Assembly (NCBI GenBank): GCA_965219955.1
Contig: OZ244799.1
Location: 3,040,001 to 3,104,000 of the forward strand
Direction: 5' to 3'
DNA length: 64,000 nt
Source: a bacterium
GTDB lineage: Bacteria; UBA8248
Position 1 is the first letter of the stretch; the number at the start of each line of letters is the position of its first letter. Below are positions 2,423-49,644 of this stretch, one piece after another. A program made the translations under genes and the position numbers. The notes below the pieces were generated by a model. It had not been told where the DNA came from, did not search any database, and was given only the letters and a program-made list of their open reading frames with translations.

Positions 2423-3691
2423 ATGTTGCTCCGCTTCGGCGTTTCCAACCATCTCTCGATACGAGATTACCAGGAATTGTCACTTTCGGCGTCTTCGCTG
2501 AAGGAGCGGCAAGAAGAGCTTATTGATTGCGAGGCGGCTCCGAACGGATCGGTTTTGCCGGTGATCGTCATCTACGGCGCAAATGCGTCGGGCAAGAGCA
2601 ACCTCGTCGACGCGATAAGCACCATGCGGGGCATGGTGTTGCTGTCTCAAACCAAGGGGGAGCCGGGCGGCGGCGTGCCCCACCATCCTTTCAGGCTCGA
2701 TGACGACAGCCCTAAGTCGCCGTCTCGTTTCGATATCGATTTTCTCATCGACGGCGTGCGGCACCACTACGGCTTCGAGGTCTCAGACTCTGCGTTCGAA
2801 TCCGAATGGCTGTACGTCTTCCCCAAGTCCCATCGCCAGACGTTGTTCGAGCGCACCGGCGATGAATTCCACTTCGGCCGCGGCTTGAAGGGACAAAACA
2901 GAGTTATCGCCCGCTTGACGAGACCCAACAGCCTCTTCGTTTCCGCGGCGGCCCAGAACGGCCACGAGCAACTTTCACAAGTGTTCTCTTATTTTCGCTC
3001 GATACGCGGGGACCGAAATACCGCCGCCAATGAGGAGGAAGTTTCAGAGCGATTTACCGGCAAAGAACTGGACGGCCGAGTGATCGACTTCCTCGGAAAA
3101 ATTGATACTGGAGTCATTGACTACCGCCTAAGCGAAACCGAACTTTCGGAAAAGCACTTAGGGATTCCGCGGGAATTTTTCACGCAGCTTGCGAAGCAAA
3201 CCGGTGAAGAACCACCCAAGTGGGCCACCATTGAATTAGCCCATCGCGGGCGGGGTGATGCGCCGTTTTATCTCGATATGGAAAGAGAAAGCGCCGGGAC
3301 GCGGCGGCTATTGATCGTGCTTGCTCTCGCATTTCACGCGCTCGATGAAGGCGCGCCTTTGTTCATCGACGAACTCGACGCCAGTCTGCACACGCAGGCC
3401 GCCGAGGCGGTATTAAATCTATTCTGTTCGCGGGAGACGAATCCCAAGGGCGCGCAACTCATCGCAACGACTCACGACACCAATCTGCTGGCCTCGCCCC
3501 TGCTTCGGCGTGATGAAGTCTGGTTCACTCAAAAAGAACCAGACGGCGCGACCCGACTCTATCCCTTGACCGACATCCGAACCCGCAGGGGCGACAACAT
3601 CGAGAAAGGATACCTCCAGGGCCGCTACGGTGGAATTCCCTTCATCGATTCCATCACGGCTACCGGTTCTACTCTTGGCGCGTCGAACTAG
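2423..3691 (+). CDS. AAA_21 ATPase, RloA/AbiLi-like
   Basis: Walker A YGANASGKS, ESAGTRR signature, FIDELDASLH Walker B, ATTHD, C-terminal YLQGRYGGIP. Confidence 0.85.
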   Translation: MLLRFGVSNHLSIRDYQELSLSASSLKERQEELIDCEAAPNGSVLPVIVIYGANASGKSNLVDAISTMRGMVLLSQTKGEPGGGVPHHPFRLDDDSPKSPSRFDIDFLIDGVRHHYGFEVSDSAFESEWLYVFPKSHRQTLFERTGDEFHFGRGLKGQNRVIARLTRPNSLFVSAAAQNGHEQLSQVFSYFRSIRGDRNTAANEEEVSERFTGKELDGRVIDFLGKIDTGVIDYRLSETELSEKHLGIPREFFTQLAKQTGEEPPKWATIELAHRGRGDAPFYLDMERESAGTRRLLIVLALAFHALDEGAPLFIDELDASLHTQAAEAVLNLFCSRETNPKGAQLIATTHDTNLLASPLLRRDEVWFTQKEPDGATRLYPLTDIRTRRGDNIEKGYLQGRYGGIPFIDSITATGSTLGASN

Positions 3692-39283: not shown

Positions 39284-39349
39284 GGTTTCCGGAGGGAACG
39301 ACACTCTTCGGTTGACGACTTCTTTTCGCCGATCGATTCGGAGCAATGC

Positions 39350-40030
39350 GGGGGTGTGGAAAAAGCCTTCTCGGTTGGAATTGACGATGCATTTCGTGCG
39401 CGCCTGGATTCGGGCGTCGTTACAGAGACGGCTGATGCGGTTCACCACGAAGCCGTCATTCCGGCGAAAGCCGGAATCCATTTTGACTTTTCACATGGCT
39501 GGGCGGCCACAAACTTGTTGTTGCGCGGCGTTCAGATGCGGAATCCAGAGGATTCGCCTTTCGTTTTTGTTTTCGATTCTGATCCTCCCCAAAGGGAGGC
39601 GAAAAGGCAAAGGCAAAATGGATTCCGGCTTTCGCCGGAATGACGGCCAAAACCCCAAGCCGAGAAATCGCTTCCTCCTCGCCGACTCTCCCTCGACTCG
39701 AAACCCACCCCCCCTACCCCCCTTGTCAGGGGGGCAAGAAAAAGCAAAACCCCTCAGCCCGGCGAGAGCGCATCGCCTTTTTATACCCCCCTGACTAGGG
39801 ATTGTTGAAAAAGCCTGTTTCGGGATCGGCGGCAAGGAGGTTCACGCGGCGCAGACGTGATGGTTTTGTAGGGACAGGCCTCCGTGCCTGTCCTGCTCTT
39901 CGTGGTTGTCCTTCGTCAGGACAGGCACGGAGGCCTGTCCCTACGGCGAACAATCTCAAAGGTCGGACAGGATTTTTGGGAAGCCCCGCATGGCCGATCT
40001 CTCGGGCGGCCACGGGGGGCCGCCCCTACG
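39350..40030. repeat. Large composite repeat patch
   Basis: Perfect 34-bp inverted pair at 39452-39485 and 39614-39647; CCCCTTGTCAGGGGG hairpin; 39798-39870 matches 28582-28655; REP doublet GTAGGGACAGGC...GCCTGTCCCTAC at ~39868-39944. Confidence 0.8.
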
Positions 40031-40110: not shown

Positions 40111-41883
40111 TCAACCCCCTCCGCCGCGCACCGCTCCCGAAACTTCCACGCGAACCGTCACGATGTCCGTGTCGTGGTATTGCTGGTGGCGAACCGAAGA
40201 CGCGAGGTGGCGCAGCAGTCTGAGCGAGACTTCGCGCTCAATCGGCGCGCCGGCGGTCTGCTCGCCGAGCAGCGCGATTTTATCCTGGAGGTTCTCCTCG
40301 CCGCCCGCGGCGACGAACTCCATCACCGCGCCGCCGTCTTCCTTGTGCGCCACCACGAGGAGGCGCCTCCGCTCGCGGCTCTCGTCGGCTTCATCCGGGC
40401 GCAGGAGCGTCAGCAGCGTCTCCTCGCCCGCGGCGTCCAGGCGATGCGCCATCGCCTCATCCCATCCGCTGGCCGAGGCGAACTCGCCGAGAAACTCCCT
40501 GATCTTCGGCAAAGCGGAGATGTCGAACGCCGCCTCCATCCGGCTGCGGCGCGGTTCGGTGAATTCGACGAACAGGGTCATGATCATGGCGACGAGGCCG
40601 CCGGCCGTCATTCCGTTGTTCAGCAGGCCGCCCGCGAAGGTGGAGAAGTATTCGGGATAGATGACGCCGTTCTGGAAGCCCACGCCCGCCCAGAAGGCGA
40701 TGCCCGCCACCAGGCCCTTTCGGTAGTCGATGCCGTCCTGAATGACCATCCGCATGCCGACAATGAAGAGCATCGCCAGCAATACGGTCATGTAGGCCGC
40801 GGCGACCGGACCCGGTATCGCCAGCACCACGGCGACGAACTTGGGCAGAAACGCCAGGGAGAGGAACACCAGCCCGGCGGCGACTCCGACGCTGCGCGCG
40901 CCGACGCCGGTGAGTTCGGTGACGGAAACGCTCGTCGAATAGGTCGTGTTCGGCACCGTCGCCAAAAGGCCGGAGAGCAGGTTGCCCACCCCGTCGGCGG
41001 CCACGGCGCCCTGCACCGCCTTGAAATCCACCGCCCGGGGCCGCCGCCAGGATACGCGCTGGATGGCGGCGCCGTCGCCCACGGTCTCGATGGCGCCGAT
41101 CAGGGTCACGAAAATGAATCCCGGCAGAAGCGTCCAGAACACCGGCCCGAAGCTCAAGTCCAGGCCGGGCCACGCGCCCTGGGGAAGGCCGACCCAGGCG
41201 GCCTCCGCGACGCGGGCCGTGTCGTAGATGCCGAACCACCCGCCGACGATCGATCCGGCGACCACGCCGATCACCGGCGCCCAGAGGCGCAGCGCCCCCG
41301 CCGCCTTCAGCGCGATGCCGAGGATGACGGCTACGGTCGCCAGCGCGCTCAGCGGAGCGGCGAGCGGCGGGCTGCCCTTCGGCACGTCATCGAGCATGCC
41401 GAAGATGATGGGCATCACCGTCACCGCTATCAGCATGATGACGGTTCCCGCCACGGTCGGCGTCAGCACCCGCCGGAACAGGGAGAGCCGCTCGGAAAGC
41501 ACGAACTGAAACAGCGAGGAGGCGAGAACCAGCGTGGCGAGCATCCCCGGCCCTCCCTTGGCGAGCGCCGCGATGCAGACGGCGATGAAGGCGCCCGAGG
41601 TGCCCATGATGAGCACGTAGCCCGCGCCGAAGCGGCCGATCCGGCGAGCCTGGAGCATCGTGGTCGCGCCGCAGATCGCCAACGCGGCGAACACCGCCCA
41701 CGAGAGATAGTCCGCGGTTCCGCCGGCGGCGCGCACCACGATCGCGGGCGCGAACACGATGCCGCCCGCACACAGGGCGGCGAGCTGCAAGCCCAGGCCG
41801 AACGCGAGCAGGGGCGGCGGCTTCTCGTCGGCTTCGTAGCGTACGTCGGTGTTCGTGTGCTGGTCGGAATTCTCGGCGTTCAA
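40111..41883 (-). CDS. NCS2/NAT (xanthine-uracil permease family) transporter fused to a degenerate RsbW-like C-terminal domain
   Basis: Multi-TM permease (ETVGD, ADGVGN, LTGV.AR, IPGPV); last ~142 aa (40111-40539) align by eye with the RsbW at 36233; TTG start with RBS GGAAGGA. Confidence 0.8.
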   Translation of the reverse strand: MNAENSDQHTNTDVRYEADEKPPPLLAFGLGLQLAALCAGGIVFAPAIVVRAAGGTADYLSWAVFAALAICGATTMLQARRIGRFGAGYVLIMGTSGAFIAVCIAALAKGGPGMLATLVLASSLFQFVLSERLSLFRRVLTPTVAGTVIMLIAVTVMPIIFGMLDDVPKGSPPLAAPLSALATVAVILGIALKAAGALRLWAPVIGVVAGSIVGGWFGIYDTARVAEAAWVGLPQGAWPGLDLSFGPVFWTLLPGFIFVTLIGAIETVGDGAAIQRVSWRRPRAVDFKAVQGAVAADGVGNLLSGLLATVPNTTYSTSVSVTELTGVGARSVGVAAGLVFLSLAFLPKFVAVVLAIPGPVAAAYMTVLLAMLFIVGMRMVIQDGIDYRKGLVAGIAFWAGVGFQNGVIYPEYFSTFAGGLLNNGMTAGGLVAMIMTLFVEFTEPRRSRMEAAFDISALPKIREFLGEFASASGWDEAMAHRLDAAGEETLLTLLRPDEADESRERRRLLVVAHKEDGGAVMEFVAAGGEENLQDKIALLGEQTAGAPIEREVSLRLLRHLASSVRHQQYHDTDIVTVRVEVSGAVRGGGG

Positions 41884-42107
41884 TATCGCATCCTTCCCGG
41901 CTGGAAAACGGGTCTGTGGTGGGGCGGAAACCTGCGTCCGGTGCCCTCGCAACGGAGCGGTAAGTTTCTCACACCTCTTCCGGCCCCTCAAGAAAAAAGC
42001 CCGGCGCAAACCGTGGACGGGCGAAAATCGGCGATAGGGTGAGATGCCGGGGAGTTTCGGAAGAGGATCACTTTTTGTATTTTTTCCGGCGAAAAGTTGC
42101 ATTTTTG

Positions 42108-42135
42108 TTGACGAAGCGGCTTCGGTACATATATT
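42108..42135 (+). promoter_or_regulatory. Possible sigma70 promoter for the NHLP precursor
   Basis: TTGACG-16 nt-TATATT, with palindrome CGAAGC-G-GCTTCG in the spacer. Confidence 0.4.
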
Positions 42136-42284
42136 TTGGGAAGTTGTTTCTTTTGCCTGAACGGAAAATCGGCAACGCAGCCACGCTCACCCCGACGCCG
42201 GGGCATGGAGCCACGGCCAGGGAAAGAACGGAACACTGCCTGCTTCCGGGCGGGCCCGGCTCATCACCTGGAGAACTCGAAGCA

Positions 42285-42572
42285 GTGAAAACCGTAGAGG
42301 AAATACGCGAAGATATTATCAGAAAAGCAAGCGAGAACGAGGCATTCCGCGCCGAATTGCTGGCCGACCCCAAGGACGCCATCGAAAAGGAACTGGGGGT
42401 CACCATTCCCGAGGGGTTCAAGATCGGCGTTCACGAAGACAACATCATGAGCATCAACCTGGTGTTGCCTCCGGCCGAGTTGAGCGAGGCGGACCTGAGC
42501 GCCGTCGTGGCCGGCTCGCAGTCGTGGCAAGACTTCGCCAACGCCTGGAACAGCTTGAACCAGAACTCCTGA
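42285..42572 (+). CDS. NHLP-leader (proteusin-type) RiPP precursor, 95 aa
   Basis: Leader IIRKA.ENEAFRAELLADPK.AIE.ELG..IP...VHE......LVLP..ELSEADL.AVVAG; predicted core SQSWQDFANAWNSLNQNS from 42516. Confidence 0.88.
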   Translation: MKTVEEIREDIIRKASENEAFRAELLADPKDAIEKELGVTIPEGFKIGVHEDNIMSINLVLPPAELSEADLSAVVAGSQSWQDFANAWNSLNQNS

Positions 42573-42769
42573 TGCGGTATACTGAAAAAGTTCCATAATC
42601 TACTTGACAGGTTTGCCGAAACGCCCCGGGGAGAGGGTTGGTTAAGGATGCCGTATTGTGGGTTCGATCGGCTCTGTGGCCCGCTTCGCTGAAGAGAGGC
42701 CGGGGAGCCGGACCCGGTCATCACCGCCTTCCCCCCCAATGTCTGTATCCCGTTCAGGAACAGGGTTCG

Positions 42770-43867
42770 ATGATGTCTGAGAATTTCCGGGACGTCTTTC
42801 CAAGGTTGCGCCGCTTCGTTCCACCGGCCCTGCTCGATGGCCCGTGGTGGGAGCGCCTGGTGGATCGCGTCGGGGAGCTCCCGAGCTGGCTGACCCTGAA
42901 TTACGCGGCCTTCGAGTTCCGGCTGGGAGACGCTGCGCCCGCCGCCGACTATTTCGTATCGGTTACGCCTGATCGCCCGTCCATGGAGTATTACGTTCGC
43001 CTGGGCGAGGATGCAAAGCCCGACTCCCCGGAGGCGGCCCTCGGCCGGGTCTACTCCCTCATGAACGGGGCGGGTCCCCCTTCCGAACCCTCTCTCGCCG
43101 GCTGGTTCAGGGCGTCGATGCTCGAGTACGACATCGCGGAGGTCCCCTCGAACCTGAACCCGGCTCCGGGCGTGTTCCTGGCGCTCAAGCCTCAATCCGA
43201 ACTGAATGAAGAGGTCGCGGGCTCAAGAACGCCCCGCCGCCTGGCCGCCACCATCGCGAGCGCCGCGGGGTGGGAGGAAGACGAGGAGGAGCGCCTCGCC
43301 GTGGAGCGGACCTTCGCCGCCCTGCCCCGCACCGGCGTGGTGGACCAGATCGGCGCCGTGCCCGAGCGCGGGCCGCGATCCATCCGCCTGATCGTGGACG
43401 GGTTGAAACTGCGCAACGTGCCCGCGTTCCTGAAGCGGCTGAAATGGGACGGCTCCACCCGGAAAGTGATGGACACGCTGGAGGAGATGCGCGACATGAC
43501 GCCCGTCTTCCGGCTGGCGCTGGACGTCGCGGCGAACGGCGTGGGGCCGCGCCTGGGTCTGGAGATGTACAGGCCGAGGAAACCCTCGAACCTCGACTAC
43601 TGGCTGACGTCGGGGCGCAACGCCTGGCGTCCCGTCGTGGACTACCTCGAGCAGATGGAATGGTGCCTGCCGGAGAAAGGAGACGGCCTCCGCGCCTTCC
43701 CGGGAATCGAGCGGCTCTTCGAGGAAAAGGGCATGTCCATCCTCTACAAGGGAATCAACCACTTCAAGCTGTCCATCGAGGGCGACGCCGTGGAAGCCAA
43801 GGCCTACGCCGCCCTCGCCTACTTCCGTCTCTACGCCGATTCCGAGGGGGAGGCGGGGGCTCTTTAA
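42770..43867 (+). CDS. Uncharacterised protein, putative RiPP maturase (possibly ABBA-type prenyltransferase fold)
   Basis: 365 aa, host-like codon usage; motifs FEFRLG..ADY, LEYD, PRLGLE, INHFKL..EAKAY; directly follows the precursor; fold is inference. Confidence 0.5.
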   Translation: MMSENFRDVFPRLRRFVPPALLDGPWWERLVDRVGELPSWLTLNYAAFEFRLGDAAPAADYFVSVTPDRPSMEYYVRLGEDAKPDSPEAALGRVYSLMNGAGPPSEPSLAGWFRASMLEYDIAEVPSNLNPAPGVFLALKPQSELNEEVAGSRTPRRLAATIASAAGWEEDEEERLAVERTFAALPRTGVVDQIGAVPERGPRSIRLIVDGLKLRNVPAFLKRLKWDGSTRKVMDTLEEMRDMTPVFRLALDVAANGVGPRLGLEMYRPRKPSNLDYWLTSGRNAWRPVVDYLEQMEWCLPEKGDGLRAFPGIERLFEEKGMSILYKGINHFKLSIEGDAVEAKAYAALAYFRLYADSEGEAGAL

Positions 43868-44081
43868 GCTGAACCGGACAGAAAAAGAAACCGACCGAAA
43901 TCGACAAGACCTGGCACGGGTGCTAACGTAGCGCGAATTTTTTGAAATATCACGAGGTTTGAGGACCCAACACCCGTGGATTATCTGCGCCCTGTTTTTG
44001 CGTCTCTGTACGCCCTTTTTCAACCCGTTGTTTCTCCTACGAGCGATCCCGAACGACTCACGCAAGTTTTTTGCGGGCTAA

Positions 44082-45696
44082 CAGCCTGTCGGGCTTTGGC
44101 CTGCCAAGGAGTTCGAAGCACCAATCGTGGGAGTGATTTTCGGGGTTCTTCTCGGTAATCGATTCTTGTTGGCCGGCGATTCGGTGTCAGGAGCCATGAT
44201 CGGCCCTCACAGGCCCGGTGGGAGTCATAGCGGCCGGCAACAGGCCACGGGACGAGGGCGTTTATCCTCCGATCACGCCGACTTCAGGTTGTGCAGACGC
44301 TTGCAGTTATAAGCCAGCATCACCAGGACCCACTCGCCCTGCACCTTCTCGAGACCGCGCAAGAGGAACTGCCGGAAGCCCATCGCCTGCTTGACGATGC
44401 CGAACACCGGCTCCACCGTCTGCCGCCGCAGGCGATAACGGGCGCGCTCTTCCGGCTTCGCCATCTTCGCGCGCATCGCCGCAATCCACTCCGCTCGAAC
44501 TTCCGGACCTGGCCGGGAAGCCACCGGTGGCCGGAAGTCGTGCCGACGGCGCCCCCCTTCGGCTTGCGTGGCCACCAGAACCTCGACGCCCCGTCTCTCG
44601 AGTTCTTCCACTTCGCTGCCCGTCGCGTAGCCGCTGTCCGCCAACACACGCGCCGGCGCGGCAACCGAAGGCGGAATCGCCTCCACGTCCGCCACCAGTT
44701 CCCCGCGGTCGCTCGCGTTGTTGCTCACACGCGCTCCCAGCACCAACTGGCTGCCTTCGGCATCCACCACCGCCTGCGCGTTGTACGCCTGGCGATACTC
44801 GTGACGCTTGCTCTTGCGCATCAAGGCGCTGTCCCCATCCGTCAGGTTGATCTGCCGCCCCTCTTCGGGCTTCTCCCGAGGGGGCTTGATGCGCGGACCC
44901 TTCCTCCGACCTGAACGGCGCTCCCGAGACGCCGCCTTGCGTTCATATTCCGCCCGACCCGCCTCGGCCGACCTCTTCGCGCGGCGCTCCAGTTCCGCGC
45001 ACGCCGCATCCAGCTTCGACTTCAACTCCTCGCGACGCGCCAACTCCTCCGGCAGCGCCTGCGGATCCCCTACCTCCTGCGCATCTTCGCTCTCCGCACG
45101 CTCCAGCAACTCCTCGACCTCTCCGCGCAATTGAGAGCCCAACGCCTGCGCACGGTCATACCGGACGTTGTTGTGCTTGCTCGCGTTCGCGTCCACCTTC
45201 GTCCCGTCCACGCTCACCGTCCCGACCCGCAACAACTTCAACTCCTTCGCCAGCAGCAAAACCTGCTCGAACGTCTCCGCTATCGCCTCGAAGTTATCGC
45301 GACGGAACGCGCAGATCGTGTCGTGGTCCGGGTGTGTGTTCGACGCCACGTATCGAACCCCGATATCCCGGTACGTCGCGCGCTCGATCCGGCGCGAACC
45401 GAATATCCCGTTCGCGTAGCAGTAAATCAGCAGCGCCAGCATCATCCGGGGATGGTACTGCGCTGAACCCGTGCCGCGCTCGTTCACGCGGAATGACCCC
45501 AGAGGCACCCGTTCCACCGCCTCCACTACGAAGTGCGCCAGATCGTCCTCCGGCAACCACTCCCGCATGTCCACAGGAAGAAGATACAACTGCGACTGAT
45601 TACAATCTACAAACTTCGCCACCCCAATCCCCTCCCTTAAAAATACCTCGCGAGAACGACATATTATAAAAGGTAGGGCCTAAGTCCGACAGGCTG
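44082..45696 (-). mobile_element. IS1182-family insertion sequence, complete
   Basis: Terminal IRs CAGCCTGTCGGGCTTTGGCC / CAGCCTGTCGGACTTAGGCC (18/20); 4-bp direct repeat CTAA at 44078-44081 and 45697-45700. Confidence 0.9.
44273..45622 (-). CDS. IS1182-family DDE transposase
   Basis: YHPRMML, SRRIE, PDHDTI, VDGTK, NLTD.DS, ADSGY, YRLR..TVEPVFG..K. Confidence 0.93.
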   Translation of the reverse strand: MAKFVDCNQSQLYLLPVDMREWLPEDDLAHFVVEAVERVPLGSFRVNERGTGSAQYHPRMMLALLIYCYANGIFGSRRIERATYRDIGVRYVASNTHPDHDTICAFRRDNFEAIAETFEQVLLLAKELKLLRVGTVSVDGTKVDANASKHNNVRYDRAQALGSQLRGEVEELLERAESEDAQEVGDPQALPEELARREELKSKLDAACAELERRAKRSAEAGRAEYERKAASRERRSGRRKGPRIKPPREKPEEGRQINLTDGDSALMRKSKRHEYRQAYNAQAVVDAEGSQLVLGARVSNNASDRGELVADVEAIPPSVAAPARVLADSGYATGSEVEELERRGVEVLVATQAEGGRRRHDFRPPVASRPGPEVRAEWIAAMRAKMAKPEERARYRLRRQTVEPVFGIVKQAMGFRQFLLRGLEKVQGEWVLVMLAYNCKRLHNLKSA

Positions 45697-45893
45697 CTAA
45701 TATTCTCAAGTTTTGTAATCTGCCTCGTCTTCTACTTCTGGAAAAGAAACTTTCCCAGATTTTCACAATCCACAACTCCTGCTCTCGGAAACCTCGGAAC
45801 ATTCATCGGGATCGCTCTCGGCCTGAAAACGGCGTTTCTGACTTCTGGCGCAGGCATAACCAATCCCTTGACGCCGGGAAAGAACCCCGGCCC

Positions 45894-48788
45894 GTGAATG
45901 CCTCAGAAACTGAAGTCCGCATCAGAGTCGAACGAAGCGGGCTGGCGTCGTTCCTGTTCGCAGTCTTGCGTCCACGAGACGCCAGGGTTGCTTTCGTGAG
46001 CGCGAATTCCCTGAGACTAATGCACGGGTCCCGATACACGGAAATCCCTATTGGGGACATCGTGTCGGCCAAAGTCGAAACCGGGCTACGCTGGTCCGGG
46101 ATACGCTTTCATCATGCTAAAGGGTGCGCAACCGTGTCGGGGCTATCGCGGGACGACGCTTGGGCGTTCGCCGAAGTGTTGGAAACCAACAGGGTCTACT
46201 GGTGGCGCCGAGTGCTCGCGGCAGAGATCGCAGCTCTCCATTCGTTAGATGAGCGTCTGCTGCAACTTGTAAGTCCGCCAGAGTACATAGCGCGCAGCGT
46301 CTTCCGTAAACTGAGGGGCGATGCAAAGAAGGCGGTGGAACAGTTCTTGGAGCGCTGGCCGAAGGCACTGTCTAATACTCCAGAAATTCGACTGTTGAAA
46401 AGGGTACAGGATTTTCTGGAAGACCCAGAGCGTATACGGGAGAAAGCGAACAGGGCTTTCGTCGAAAATGAAATGTTCCGGTTGCGGGAGTTTTTCGACC
46501 GGATTGAAGCCAGACCGCTTACCGAGGAACAACGCCGGGCGGTCGTCATAGATGATGACCGGAACCTGGTGATCGCCGCTGCCGGCAGCGGCAAGACCTC
46601 GGTGATCGTCGCCAAGACCGGCTTGCTTCTCTATAGAGGCGACCGCCGCCCGTCGGAACTGCTGCTCCTGGCATTTGCGAAAGACGCCCAGAACGAGATG
46701 GAAGAACGGGTCCGCAAGCGTATCGGCAACGAAGCGGCGGACGGCATGACCGTCAGGACGTTCCACAGCTTGGGCATGGCGATTATCGGCGAAGCCGAAG
46801 GCAGGCGTCCGGGACTGGCCAAGACGGCTGAAGACCCAAAGGCGCTGCTCGACCTGCTCAAGAGCATCATCACCGAGCTGGCTGAAGAGCGAAAGTTCTT
46901 GGGAGCTTTGCTGAAGTGGTTTCAGTCTCAGTTCGCGCCTTACAGGAGTGAGCACGAATTCCAGAGTTATGGTGACTACTGGGACTATATCCGGCAACAT
47001 GATATCCGCTCGCTAAAAGGCGAGAAAGTACGGAGTTACGAGGAATGTGAGATTGCCAACTTCCTCTATCTGAACGGCGTTCCCTACGAGTACGAACGTG
47101 ACTATGAGCACGAAACGGCTACGCCGGAAAAGGGGCCATACAGGCCGGATTTCTATCTGACCGAAGCCGGTATCTATATTGAGCATTTCGGGCTCGACAT
47201 TGAGGGAAAGACCGCTCCGTTCGTTCCGCAGAAAGAATATCTCGAGTCGATGGCGTGGAAGCGCGGACTCCACTCCCAATGCGGCACCACCCTGATCGAG
47301 ACTTTCAGCTACGAGCGCGCCGCCGGAAGGTTGACCGAGAACCTAGCCGGGAGACTGCGTGCTTACGGCGTATCCCTATCTCCCATTCCCAATGATGAGG
47401 TCTTCGCCATATTGAATCGGCAGGGACAGGTTGACCCGTTTATTAGCCTTCTGGCGACCTTTCTCAAACACTTCAAGGGAACGCGGCTGAGTTTCCGTGA
47501 GGTTGCCCGGCGGGCCGCCAACCATCGGGACCGCCTGCGGGCCGAAGCCTTCCTCACCCTGTTCCGGCCAGTCTTCGAGCGCTACGAGGAAAAGCTCTCC
47601 CAATCGGGAGAGATCGATTTCCACGACATGATCGACAGGGCGACGGGCCATGTCGAGGCCGGACGCTACCGCAGCCCCTTCGGCTATATCCTGGTCGATG
47701 AGTTCCAGGACATTTCACCGGACAGGGCAAGGTTGTTGAAAGCGCTGCTGGAGAAGTCGCCAAGCGCGCGGCTGTTCGCCGTCGGGGACGACTGGCAGGC
47801 GATATACCGTTTCGCAGGATCGGACATCGGCATCATGCGGGAGTTTACGGAGCATTTCGGCGGCTACGATCGCATCCCTCTGGAGACGACCTTCCGCTGC
47901 GCGGACCGCATTGCCTCTGTCGCTACCCAATTCGTCCTGCGCAACCCTGCGCAGATATCGAAGAGGGTTGGTTCAGTACACCGGGCGGACAGGCCGCGCG
48001 TCCATGTTGGTCTCCCCGGCGAGCAAGAACTCCCTCTGTTGAATGAGGCGCTAGACAAGATCACAGAGGATGCCGCAAAGTTTGAGGGGAGATCGAGCGT
48101 GCTATTATTGGGCCGGTACAGGCACACGCGGCCGCAGAACATGTCCGCTCTGGCAAGGAATTATCCCGGGCTCGGGATATCCTACAAGACCGTGCACAGA
48201 TCCAAGGGGCTCGAAGCGGATTATGTCGTGGTTCTCGACCTGTGTTCCGGAAAATATGGTTTTCCCACCGAAATCGACGACGACCCGCTGCTCGACCTAG
48301 TCCTCTCTGTGCCCGAAGAGTACCCGAACGCAGAGGAGCGGCGCCTGTTTTACGTCGCCATCACCCGTGCCAGACGCCGCGTCTTCCTGCTTGCCGAGAG
48401 CGGTCCTCCTTCTCCCTTTGACATAGAACTGTTCGACGGGGAATACGACATCACCGTCTTTGGCTGGTTGCCGGATGGCGACGTCCCCTGCCCGGTATGC
48501 GTTAAGGGACACCTCAGGCAACGCGAAAACAAGCGGAACGGCGGCATCTTCTACGGCTGCTCGAACTACCCCTATTGTGAGCATACACAGCGGCCCTGCC
48601 CGGTTTGCAGGAAGGGATTGCCGGTCAAGGAGGAAGAAGCCTTCCGCTGCCGAGAGTGCGGCGAGTTGATCGAGACCTGCCCCAAATGCGGCGGCTGGCT
48701 GCAGGAAAGAGTCAGTAAATACGGCCCTTTTCTGGGATGCTCGAATTATCCCAAGTGCAAATACACTCGCGACGATACGAAAGAATAA
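45894..48788 (+). CDS. UvrD-family DNA helicase IV-like protein with C-terminal topoisomerase-type Zn ribbons
   Basis: AAAGSGKT, LVDEFQD, VGDDWQAIY, TVHRSKGLE, EERRLFYVAITRA; C-terminal CxxC..GCSNYP.C repeats. Confidence 0.88.
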   Translation: MNASETEVRIRVERSGLASFLFAVLRPRDARVAFVSANSLRLMHGSRYTEIPIGDIVSAKVETGLRWSGIRFHHAKGCATVSGLSRDDAWAFAEVLETNRVYWWRRVLAAEIAALHSLDERLLQLVSPPEYIARSVFRKLRGDAKKAVEQFLERWPKALSNTPEIRLLKRVQDFLEDPERIREKANRAFVENEMFRLREFFDRIEARPLTEEQRRAVVIDDDRNLVIAAAGSGKTSVIVAKTGLLLYRGDRRPSELLLLAFAKDAQNEMEERVRKRIGNEAADGMTVRTFHSLGMAIIGEAEGRRPGLAKTAEDPKALLDLLKSIITELAEERKFLGALLKWFQSQFAPYRSEHEFQSYGDYWDYIRQHDIRSLKGEKVRSYEECEIANFLYLNGVPYEYERDYEHETATPEKGPYRPDFYLTEAGIYIEHFGLDIEGKTAPFVPQKEYLESMAWKRGLHSQCGTTLIETFSYERAAGRLTENLAGRLRAYGVSLSPIPNDEVFAILNRQGQVDPFISLLATFLKHFKGTRLSFREVARRAANHRDRLRAEAFLTLFRPVFERYEEKLSQSGEIDFHDMIDRATGHVEAGRYRSPFGYILVDEFQDISPDRARLLKALLEKSPSARLFAVGDDWQAIYRFAGSDIGIMREFTEHFGGYDRIPLETTFRCADRIASVATQFVLRNPAQISKRVGSVHRADRPRVHVGLPGEQELPLLNEALDKITEDAAKFEGRSSVLLLGRYRHTRPQNMSALARNYPGLGISYKTVHRSKGLEADYVVVLDLCSGKYGFPTEIDDDPLLDLVLSVPEEYPNAEERRLFYVAITRARRRVFLLAESGPPSPFDIELFDGEYDITVFGWLPDGDVPCPVCVKGHLRQRENKRNGGIFYGCSNYPYCEHTQRPCPVCRKGLPVKEEEAFRCRECGELIETCPKCGGWLQERVSKYGPFLGCSNYPKCKYTRDDTKE

Positions 48789-49019
48789 TCGCACAACAAG
48801 ATGTCGGCTTGGGCAACCGACTCGTCGACGGCTTCACCGGCAAATATGCGCAGAGAGTTTGGAAACTGGAAAAGGAGACACGGTTCAGACTAATTCCATC
48901 CTCATTTCGTGCATTAACTCACCCCAAGCCTCCTTTACCGTCACCCTCCCCGCTGAAGCTCATAAAGGCCACACAGGCTTCCGAAACGGGAGAAGAAACC
49001 ATCCGGCACAGAAGAGTGT

Positions 49020-49048
49020 TTGACAAGTGTCGATTGACGCATTACATT
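49020..49048 (+). promoter_or_regulatory. Sigma70 promoter of higBA
   Basis: TTGACA-17 nt-TACATT ending 6 nt before the toxin ATG. Confidence 0.65.
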
Positions 49049-49054
49049 GCGCGA

Positions 49055-49333
49055 ATGATAATGAGTTTTCGGCACCGTGGCCTCAGACGCTTATATCAAC
49101 GCGGCGACCCCAGCCGCATCCATCCCGACTTGCAGGAGCGGGTGGAGGTGATTCTGGCTCAACTCGATGTCGCCACGTCGCCGGAGGCGATGCGCATGCC
49201 CCACTACAGGCTCCACCGACTCAAAGGCGAATTGCGAGGCTATTGGTCGGTCACAGTGAACTCCAACTGGCGCATCATCTTCCGCTTCGAGGGTGAGGAT
49301 GCGTATGACGTCGAACTCACCGACTATCACTGA
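49055..49333 (+). CDS. higB: HigB (RelE/ParE superfamily) toxin
   Basis: [30 protein letters not shown] terminus; toxin-first order. Confidence 0.9.
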
Positions 49334-49350
49334 ATGAGGGAGGACCCATC

Positions 49351-49644
49351 ATGCCCATGAAGAATCCGCCGCATCCCGGCAAGGTCGTGCGCGTCTCGTG
49401 TCTGGAGCCGTTGGGCCTGAGCGTGACCGAAGGCGCCAAGGCGCTGGGCGTCAGCCGACAGGCGCTCTCGAACCTGGTGAACGGGCGCGCGCGGGTGTCG
49501 AGCGAGATGGCGATACGCCTCGCCAAGGCCTTCGGCTCGACGACGGAGACCTGGATACGCCTCCAGACGGCTTACGACATCGCGCGGGCGCTCGAGCAAG
49601 AGGACGAAATCGAGGTGGAGCGCTACGAGCCGCAACCGGCGTGA
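49351..49644 (+). CDS. higA: HigA antitoxin (HTH_XRE)
   Basis: [31 protein letters not shown]. Confidence 0.92.

Follow-up and report, generated by a model that had tools for sequence, protein, structure and literature searches.

The stretch of DNA analysed here (hereafter the window) comprises 64,000 nucleotides (nt) of contig OZ244799.1 (positions 3,040,001 to 3,104,000, forward strand) in the genome assembly GCA_965219955.1 of a UBA8248 bacterium. Its plus strand carries a two-gene module that consists of a gene for a precursor peptide of the NHLP (proteusin) type at 42285-42572 and, after a gap of 197 nt, a gene for a 365-amino-acid (aa) protein at 42770-43867, whose predicted structure is the ABBA or PT-barrel fold of aromatic prenyltransferases. 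According to our favoured reading, to which we assign a probability of roughly 55%, this protein is a sequence-orphan ABBA enzyme that prenylates Trp88 of the precursor under guidance of the leader peptide, the chemistry being deduced from the fold, the gene linkage, and the conservation of the tryptophan. The 95-aa precursor would be made on the ribosome and bound through its leader by the soluble enzyme, which would use a prenyl diphosphate to prenylate the indole of Trp88 (position 11 of the core peptide). The leader would be cut off after Ala76-Gly77, and the peptide would be exported by an NHLP-type C39 peptidase/ABC transporter acting in trans from the srp cluster of the same genome, 732 kb away. 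An earlier note, made from the window sequence alone, had guessed both the fold and the function. The former guess was confirmed by structure prediction, and the latter was strengthened by the comparative evidence presented below, from which we infer prenyl transfer, its donor, and its site.

The precursor gene starts with a GTG codon at 42285, which is preceded by GGAGAA at a distance of 10 nt, and its stop codon occupies 42570-42572; the GTG start is retained in 13 of the 15 Nitrospinota-type loci (L003-L017) among the related loci described below. The encoded peptide matched the NHLP/proteusin leader model TIGR03793 with 65.8 bits (E 2.3e-18) over model positions 2-77 of 77 and thus exceeded the curated cut-off of 50.9 bits; in Pfam it had only a sub-threshold match to the nitrile hydratase alpha family. 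A search of the whole genome with the same model, in which the window precursor scored 65.5 bits, returned two matches over the cut-off, the window precursor being one of them. The leader ends with LSEADLSAVVAG (L66-S-E-A-D-L71-SAVVAG77 by residue count), so that its previous description as an NHLP leader ending in AVVAG holds. An alignment of 36 of the 82 precursors found in the related loci, a non-random sample chosen by hand for diversity, showed G77 to be invariant and L66 and L71 to be conserved in at least 90% of the sequences; both the Ala-Gly end and the L(X)4L motif expected of such leaders are present. According to the accessible text of the respective papers, the L(X)4L motif acts in the recognition of NHLP leaders by SrpI, MprC, and C39 domains (PMC10858898, PMC12455567, PMC12715784).

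The 18-residue core, SQSWQDFANAWNSLNQNS, is free of Cys and carries Trp at positions 4 and 11 with Phe at position 7, in agreement with the i/i+7 arrangement reported earlier. The accompanying idea that the two Trp form one helical face fared less well: both residues are present, but the idea is weakened because only Trp88 is conserved among the relatives. The first core Trp varies as W, M, P, or Y in close Nitrospinota-type homologues, and the core consensus across L003-L016 is xQx[WMPY]xx[FL]xNAWN[SN]LNQN[SI].

The enzyme gene extends from an ATG at 42770 to a stop codon at 43865-43867. Its product contains one Cys only (C299), which makes a CxxxCxxC motif impossible, and matched no model in Pfam or NCBIfam at E <= 1; the previously reported lack of radical-SAM, YcaO, and LanM motifs was borne out in this way. 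The terminal HFKL..KAY motif pointed out in the earlier note is present as INHFKL...AKAY (residues 329-346). Of 7999 candidates scored in a word-indexed search, 88 proved to be relatives at E <= 1e-3. Precomputed Pfam domains are absent from all 88, and only four have a source name, which is hypothetical protein in each case. HMMER searches over 1.84 billion cluster representatives extended the family to 1030 relatives at E <= 1e-3 (counted as clusters at 50% identity), of which 356 reached E <= 1e-10 and 97 reached E <= 1e-30. An alignment of 47 family members, with identities down to 29%, contained 14 invariant columns and 24 more that were at least 90% conserved. Among the eight longest homologues (392-498 aa), no fused domain of any Pfam family was detected at E <= 0.01.

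An AlphaFold2 model calculated from the 47-sequence alignment (pLDDT 91.5, pTM 0.90) showed five alpha-alpha-beta-beta repeats arranged as an antiparallel barrel ringed by helices, which is the architecture of an ABBA/PT barrel. Foldseek retrieved 76 matches from the PDB at E <= 1e-3, the best 50 of which were all aromatic prenyltransferases; the matches included AmbP1 (1.2e-6), TleC, NphB/Orf2, and IptA. Structural realignment of Foldseek's top 1000 chains with VIA-align gave 129 chains at Z >= 8, and the top 50 entries were again prenyltransferases throughout. When VIA-align was applied to 48,161 representative PDB chains, 19 reached Z >= 8 and all 19 were ABBA prenyltransferases, whereas rank 20 was a designed barrel with Z 5.4. 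The top match was MpnD (Z 16.2, 301 aligned residues, root-mean-square deviation (rmsd) 4.5), and the other chains included FgaPT2 (Z 15.7), DMATS1 (15.6), CymD (15.0), PatF (12.1), PagF (11.4), and DciF (11.2) as well as NphB and CloQ. Isoprenoid synthases with the all-helical ComQ/PalQ fold did not occur among the best 50 entries of either VIA-align search, the model being an alpha/beta barrel. The ABBA barrel that had been guessed from the letters was hence recovered by structure prediction and by both comparison programs, and the enzyme is, as modelled, an ABBA-fold protein of a lineage that current sequence libraries do not recognise. Polar residues that are invariant or at least 90% conserved are located on the predicted strands with i/i+2 spacing (E49/R51, E119/D121, R206, D252, R261/E265, H331/K333, and K344/Y346), R200 being a further conserved residue of the Arg/Lys/Tyr type on strands. 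Judged from their placement in the sequence, they may line the barrel and could provide Lys, Arg, and Tyr for the binding of a diphosphate.

Related loci were sought in one genome per species by means of a pattern derived from 16 closer enzyme sequences; 57 stretches matched, 39 were confirmed, and these represent 36 distinct loci (referred to by number where necessary), all from metagenome-assembled genomes. They bear at least seven phylum- or class-level labels, namely Nitrospinota, SAR202/Dehalococcoidia, Alpha- and Gammaproteobacteria, Binatia, Spirochaetia, and Acidobacteria. All open reading frames (ORFs) of the loci were searched in two rounds, first with the window precursor and next with a profile of the matches, which revealed NHLP precursors in 32 of the 36 loci. 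A co-oriented NHLP precursor gene ends 0-214 nt upstream of the enzyme gene in 31 of them, and in the 32nd (L023) the precursor is cut by the contig end. The TGA stop codon of the precursor gene overlaps the GTG/ATG start of the ABBA-fold gene in L018 (L018:7999-8006) and likewise in L019 and L020, and this overlap suggests translational coupling of the two genes in SAR202-type loci. Arrays of 11 precursor genes in L026 (5269-10777) and 14 in L027 (949-11039) are each accompanied by one ABBA-fold gene. Relatives of the gene pair are common in sponge-associated bacteria.

The proposal that homologues should sit beside Trp-containing NHLP cores was thereby put to the test, and the cores agree with it: the 82 precursors contain 64 distinct cores, and Trp occurs in 60 of these, within the last four residues in 41 and as the C-terminal residue in 29. 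Trp accounts for 89 of 1050 core residues as compared with 7 of 6486 leader residues. Outside the Nitrospinota clade the cores are otherwise hypervariable, and the distance of the conserved Trp from the C-terminus is seven residues in the window clade and one to three residues in the SAR202 clade. The hypervariable cores of the L026 and L027 arrays mostly end with DW or NW, and several cores are common to the two loci despite their differing labels (Alphaproteobacteria and Binatia, respectively).

A Pfam scan was made of 103 of the 148 ORFs at 13 loci, 53 of them from L018, L021, L024, L026, L027, and L028 and 50 from L030 and L033-L038; enzyme homologues, ORFs overlapping or antisense to precursor arrays, and some short ORFs were excluded. 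At E <= 1e-5, the families found in these 103 ORFs included C39-peptidase ABC transporters, a second large ABC transporter, and HlyD-type proteins, and none of the ORFs matched YcaO, halogenase, radical-SAM, or lanthionine synthetase (LanM) families. A tblastn search with the proteins of the srp cluster against all 36 loci and the window detected the C39 exporter and its partner ABC protein in 15 loci, the halogenase only in L011, and YcaO only in L036. Because these modifying enzymes are essentially lacking in the scanned loci, the ABBA-fold protein is the sole candidate tailoring enzyme in most clusters.

Binding of the precursor was addressed by complex prediction, which gave an ipSAE of 0.45 for enzyme and precursor (runs 0.50, 0.44, and 0.45) as compared with 0.01 for the best of three controls; the runs agreed in at least 35% of contacts, and the partner pLDDT was at least 70. 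Of 157 solved complexes, 116 attained the mark applied to this score, as did 2 of 215 mismatched pairs, and scores that reached it at no more than 0.60 were obtained for only 18 of the 157 solved complexes and for both mismatched pairs that passed. The prediction lends a little support to binding of the precursor by the enzyme.

Several observations weigh against prenylation of Trp88 by this protein. The complex score falls into a band in which most such predictions are wrong, except where the pairing was already likely on other grounds. At the sequence level, none of the 47 family members matched Trp_DMAT (PF11991), PTase_Orf2 (PF11468), or DUF5838 (PF19156) in Pfam at E <= 1, the 47-member profile found no PDB sequence at E <= 10, the NCBIfam models that gave no match at E <= 1 include that of the cyanobactin F family, and an ESM Atlas look-alike search provided only sub-0.9 leads to the three Pfam families, with twenty unnamed clusters ranking first. 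The fold alone does not prove activity, as the inactive PatF is among its matches. The lumen-facing position proposed for the conserved residues was read from strand spacing, their equivalence to known diphosphate-binding residues is presumptive, and R51, R261, and E265 are replaced in the paralog of the srp cluster. Four of the 36 loci (L033, L036, L037, and L038) contain no NHLP precursor in their available DNA, and four of the 64 distinct cores lack Trp. Finally, the conservation of Trp could instead serve bromination, receptor binding, or recognition by the exporter.

The same fold and linkage would be expected of an active ABBA transferase that modifies an acceptor other than the Trp indole, such as the C-terminal carboxylate, the new N-terminus, or Asn, Gln, or Ser, or that uses a donor other than a simple prenyl diphosphate, in which case the conserved Trp would serve for recognition. 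We consider this unlikely. Trp is the last residue in 29 of the 64 cores, where the free carboxylate is equally conserved in position, and cyanobactin-type ABBA enzymes prenylate termini, Tyr, Ser/Thr, Arg, and His according to the accessible text of PMC10853753; however, Trp is the sole feature common to all clades because its distance from the C-terminus differs between them, and the structure is closest to those of indole prenyltransferases (Z 15-16) and less similar to the cyanobactin F family (Z 11-12).

A catalytically dead ABBA protein, serving as a leader-binding partner, chaperone, or immunity factor for a peptide that is exported unmodified or modified elsewhere, appears distinctly improbable. 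PatF is an inactive member of the ABBA fold from the patellamide pathway, and this precedent, the replaced residues of the srp paralog, and the circumstance that no prenyltransferase sequence signature was verified in the family all fit such a role. They are opposed by the 14 invariant and 24 highly conserved alignment columns, which are concentrated as charged or aromatic positions on the barrel strands and resemble a maintained active-site pattern, and by the position of the protein as sole tailoring candidate beside arrays of up to 14 precursors in the Pfam-scanned loci. That the enzyme is an ordinary small-molecule indole or free-Trp prenyltransferase which adjoins a precursor gene by chance is highly improbable, even though its best structural matches (MpnD, FgaPT2, DMATS1, CymD, and IptA) act on free Trp or small indoles and 365 aa is a typical length of bacterial members, given that a co-oriented precursor gene lies within 214 nt in 31 of the 36 loci across all these taxonomic labels, that the genes overlap in L018, that two precursors are paired one-to-one with two enzymes in the genome, and that the modules of L018-L023 adjoin a dedicated peptide exporter.

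For leader-guided prenylation followed by export, the location of the transporter is a further point to be explained. The NHLP-type C39 exporter model had no match in the window, which bears out the absence of a nearby C39 peptidase or exporter claimed in the earlier note; an exporter in the same cluster, as looked for in NHLP systems, is thus missing from the window locus. The only NHLP-type C39 exporter of the genome, whose distance from the enzyme gene is the 732 kb mentioned above, is encoded at G000:C1:3814912-3817044 in the srp cluster and scored 846.3 bits with TIGR03796, just under the cut-off of 853.3 bits but far ahead of all others among the 81 genomic matches. The inference drawn previously, that processing acts in trans or that the cluster is split, holds in this form, and the layout of the related loci bears on the choice between the two. 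The permease gene upstream of the module is found at the same place in 13 of the 15 Nitrospinota-type loci, and an acyl-CoA dehydrogenase gene lies downstream in six of them, as in the window, so that the exporter-less two-gene layout occupies a conserved chromosomal place in related genomes. In L011, a contig of 9978 bp, the module is located 1.3 kb upstream of halogenase, C39-exporter, and ABC genes. The junction (3137-3213) is a repeat of about 77 nt that has at least 10 copies in the genome from which the window comes and lies exactly between the module and the srp halogenase gene, and it may represent a real rearrangement or an assembly mis-join. Because the two-gene layout is stable and the L011 joint is a multicopy repeat, the use of the srp exporter in trans is favoured over a recent split from the srp cluster, which the data do not support.

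The genome, a single contig of 4.28 Mb, encodes two members of the enzyme family. The second copy (C1:3826280-3827305), directly downstream of a YcaO gene, shares 31% identity with the window enzyme (E 6e-42), and one of the two over-cut-off NHLP precursors stands beside each copy. The paralog is part of a complete srp-type cluster at G000:C1:3812755-3827689 (L047), which comprises, in this order, genes for a Trp halogenase, the C39-peptidase ABC transporter, a 980-aa ABC protein, a 456-aa ORF, a 798-aa fatty-acid-desaturase/GlnE-like fusion, a 772-aa YcaO protein, the paralog, and the convergently oriented precursor gene of 252 bp, whose NHLP product ends with AVSAG-LCCCW. The LCCCW core, the YcaO protein SrpC, and the brominase SrpI define sponge-derived srp clusters, as stated in the accessible text of the pertinent studies (PMC10858898, PMC10286304, bioRxiv 10.1101/2023.06.09.544420). 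A prenyltransferase-like gene is not mentioned in the accessible srp papers, to which the founding paper (JACS 2021) does not belong. Elsewhere in the genome, two weak matches to the NHLP model (35.2 and 28.7 bits, below the cut-off) at G000:C1:3181450-3181845 on the minus strand fall within a 267-aa open frame, whose product may be either nitrile-hydratase-like in the true sense or a tandem leader-like protein.

The 456-aa ORF of the srp cluster (G000:C1:3820003-3821370; L047:9004-10371, plus strand), whose homologues are about 433 aa long, combines an NHLP-like N-terminus (Pfam NHase_alpha at residues 41-98, E 1.7e-5; TIGR03793 43.9 bits, below the cut-off) with a C-terminus that scored 25.3 bits with Pfam SQHop_cyclase_C (cut-off 26.1). 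In a structural model of moderate quality (pLDDT 66.7, pTM 0.65), residues of approximately 135-455 matched class II terpene cyclases: Foldseek retrieved drimenol synthase (6.5e-9) and MstE (8.6e-8), and VIA-align gave Z 24.2 for the drimenol synthase AsDMS (280 aligned residues, rmsd 3.3), 21.8 for MstE, and 19.3 for squalene-hopene cyclase, with alpha/alpha-toroid glycosidases scoring lower (Z of about 15-17). The acid motif of class II cyclases is DxD(D/T). The stretch D232-L-D234-S235, which is invariant in the alignment of the 456-aa ORF and lies in a low-confidence part of the model, resembles this motif in sequence. Homologues of the ORF were found in six of the 36 loci that carry the ABBA-fold gene, and its relatives number more than 1066, the 120 listed being 75-90% identical and distributed over several phyla. 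A polyprene cyclase in the same clusters would be expected if the ABBA protein installs a prenyl chain, and for this reason the cyclase-like neighbour is counted as indirect support for prenyl installation; the window locus itself has no such gene. A more far-reaching scenario, which we regard as rather doubtful, would make the ABBA family the lipidating enzyme of a large multi-phylum class of sponge-symbiont proteusins that attaches a long prenyl chain to one conserved Trp of hypervariable cores. The NHLP-fused cyclase-like protein of srp clusters would then cyclise this chain to yield peptide-meroterpenoid hybrids, and the product of the window module would be an 18-mer, linear and prenylated, that makes use of the srp exporter and possibly acts as a ComX-like signal in the sponge microbiome.

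Among known systems, the closest in terms of the substrate is PalQ/PalX of Paenibacillus alvei. According to the accessible text of PMC10853753, the NHLP precursor PalX ends with a conserved Trp that is prenylated by PalQ in a reaction enhanced by the leader, and the genes form a three-gene cluster. The window module has in common with it an NHLP precursor with conserved leader and Trp, a single putative prenyltransferase next to it, and a minimal cluster. It differs in that PalQ belongs to the all-helical, ComQ-like isoprene-synthase superfamily whereas the window enzyme is predicted to be an alpha/beta ABBA barrel, in that Trp is internal in the window clade (position 11 of 18), and in that no paired histidine kinase gene is present. 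ComQ/ComX of Bacillus provides a related comparison, as far as described in the accessible text of the same article: short strain-variable peptides keep one near-C-terminal Trp and are served by one dedicated prenylating enzyme (PMC10853753), and the hypervariable, Trp-terminated cores found here resemble them, but ComQ has the isoprenyl-diphosphate-synthase fold and the leader of ComX is not of the NHLP type.

With respect to the fold, the closest precedent that acts on a leader-bearing peptide is MppC from Moorena producens, a soluble ABBA enzyme that needs the whole Nif11-type leader including L(X)4L and geranylates one of two Trp of a lanthipeptide (PMC12715784). The soluble ABBA fold, a long leader with L(X)4L, and two core Trp recur in the window module. 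In contrast to the MppC substrate MppE, which has a Nif11-type leader and a core that is first cyclised by LanM (PMC12715784), the window locus encodes an NHLP precursor and no lanthionine synthetase, and MppC was placed with the cyanobactin prenyltransferases (PMC12715784) whereas the window family matches no such model. The window family thus combines PalX-like substrates with an MppC-like fold and is unrelated in sequence to either enzyme. DMATS-type indole prenyltransferases (MpnD, CymD, IptA, FgaPT2, and DMATS1) resemble the window enzyme most closely in structure (Z 15-16.2 over about 300 of the 365 residues) and in length, and their acceptor is indole; they share only 7-13% identity with it in the structural alignments, are represented by the unmatched Pfam family Trp_DMAT, and use free Trp or small indoles rather than a ribosomal precursor. 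The cyanobactin F family (PagF, PatF, and DciF; KgpF and AcyF for Trp) likewise has the ABBA fold (Z 11.2-12.1), and its substrates are ribosomally synthesised and post-translationally modified peptides. However, these enzymes act leader-free on processed, mostly cyclic peptides (PMC12715784), and the window enzyme is closer in structure to the DMATS type and matches none of the NCBIfam and Pfam models of the F family.

The srp system is related to the window module by the 31%-identical paralog in the same genome and by the same sponge-metagenome habitat labels. Unlike the paralog locus, which has all three, the window locus lacks an LCCCW core, YcaO, and Trp halogenase, and its core contains no Cys. 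Seven residues come after Trp88; a Trp to which three residues had been added on this side was not brominated by SrpI, according to the accessible text of PMC10286304. In the literature searched, to which subscription papers and supplements did not belong, we came across neither an ABBA enzyme with NHLP precursors as substrates nor a cyclase encoded in srp clusters, and a term look-up in a 2026 review on peptide prenylation found none of the words NHLP, proteusin, sponge, and nitrile hydratase.

Three enzyme types are known to prenylate Trp in ribosomal peptides, namely ComQ/PalQ, the cyanobactin F family, and MppC. The window protein is unrelated to all of them in sequence. If Trp88 is prenylated as proposed, the 1030 sequence clusters would constitute a fourth and very large lineage of peptide Trp prenyltransferases, which would have escaped annotation because no sequence model sees it. 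Judged from the accessible text of the papers on the two known systems, the novelty is the pairing of a sequence-orphan ABBA lineage with NHLP precursors; leader-dependent Trp prenylation by an ABBA enzyme (MppC, PMC12715784) and Trp prenylation of an NHLP precursor (PalQ/PalX, PMC10853753) are already known. In many clusters the enzyme is the sole tailoring candidate for as many as 14 hypervariable precursors encoded in an array, which suggests that it is guided by the leader and is by nature promiscuous in lipidating peptides at Trp. Prenylation would also explain what an uncharacterised gene does in srp clusters, which are widespread and highly transcribed in sponge microbiomes according to the accessible text of bioRxiv 10.1101/2023.06.09.544420. 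Together, the enzyme and its cyclase-like neighbour point to terpenoid chemistry in srp clusters, which the accessible srp papers do not mention, and ribosomal peptide-meroterpenoid hybrids, if they are made, would be a product type absent from the literature searched.

The features of the module are compiled in Table 1. Both genes were found at the coordinates given in the earlier note, and every detail of its description of the locus that was checked is correct, including the statement that the 365-aa protein is the only co-oriented neighbour of the precursor: the flanking genes, which encode a protein of the xanthine/uracil-permease family (40114-42102) and a DDE transposase (44276-45622), are both located on the minus strand.

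Table 1. Features of the two-gene module and its borders (positions in the window)
Feature	Position	Strand	Basis
Sigma-70-like promoter match TTGACG-16-TATATT, upstream of precursor gene	42108..42135	+	10/12 hexamer matches
NHLP/proteusin precursor gene, 95 aa, GTG start, stop included	42285..42572	+	TIGR03793 match
Leader, residues 1-77, end AVVAG (Ala-Gly cleavage-type site)	42285..42515	+	Model positions 2-77; G77 invariant
L(X)4L motif LSEADL (L66...L71), C-terminal part of leader	42480..42497	+	Nearly invariant in alignment
18-aa core SQSWQDFANAWNSLNQNS	42516..42569	+	Residues after G77
Trp88 codon (core Trp11), proposed acceptor	42546..42548	+	Sole invariant core column of precursor alignment
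365-aa ABBA/PT-barrel-fold protein, putative peptide Trp prenyltransferase	42770..43867	+	Fold and conserved residues
Terminator-like hairpin and T run, 53 nt past enzyme gene	43920..43944	+	Not above chance

Promoter-like sites are more frequent in the region than in shuffled sequences (4 as compared with 0.4 expected). Contigs from RNA libraries start at 42163, 42173, and 42194 (three runs), downstream of the promoter match, and these starts are a weak hint of a promoter there. Terminator-like sites were seen twice when shuffles predicted 3.4 and thus do not exceed chance, and no inverted repeats of at least 10 nt were found between 41900 and 44300. In four RNA libraries from three studies, contigs were found over the precursor gene and over segments of the enzyme gene, and one of them (X18, 42617-42811) bridges the start of the enzyme gene; as RNA libraries can contain DNA, contig coverage without a control does not prove transcription, and uncovered parts carry no meaning. 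At least half of the sequence words of the stretch occur in DNA runs of four studies, from which the likely source study was excluded; three of these are labelled sponge metagenome and one marine metagenome.

The block downstream of the module (43868-49523) contains, in addition to the DDE transposase gene, a UvrD-type helicase gene at 45894-48785 (plus strand; 964 aa with two topoisomerase-type zinc ribbons) and a HigB-like ORF at 48737-49330 (plus strand). Relative to L011, this block is extra DNA, being absent there between matching flanks, and the helicase gene is also located downstream of the two-gene module in L013 and L015. Dense, overlapping short ORFs on both strands were observed at 39300-39850 of the window and at L002:3030-3480, which lies beside the srp precursor. 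The two regions have peptide strings in common, for example VIPAKAGIHF and GFRLSPE, and look like copies of a short dispersed repeat.

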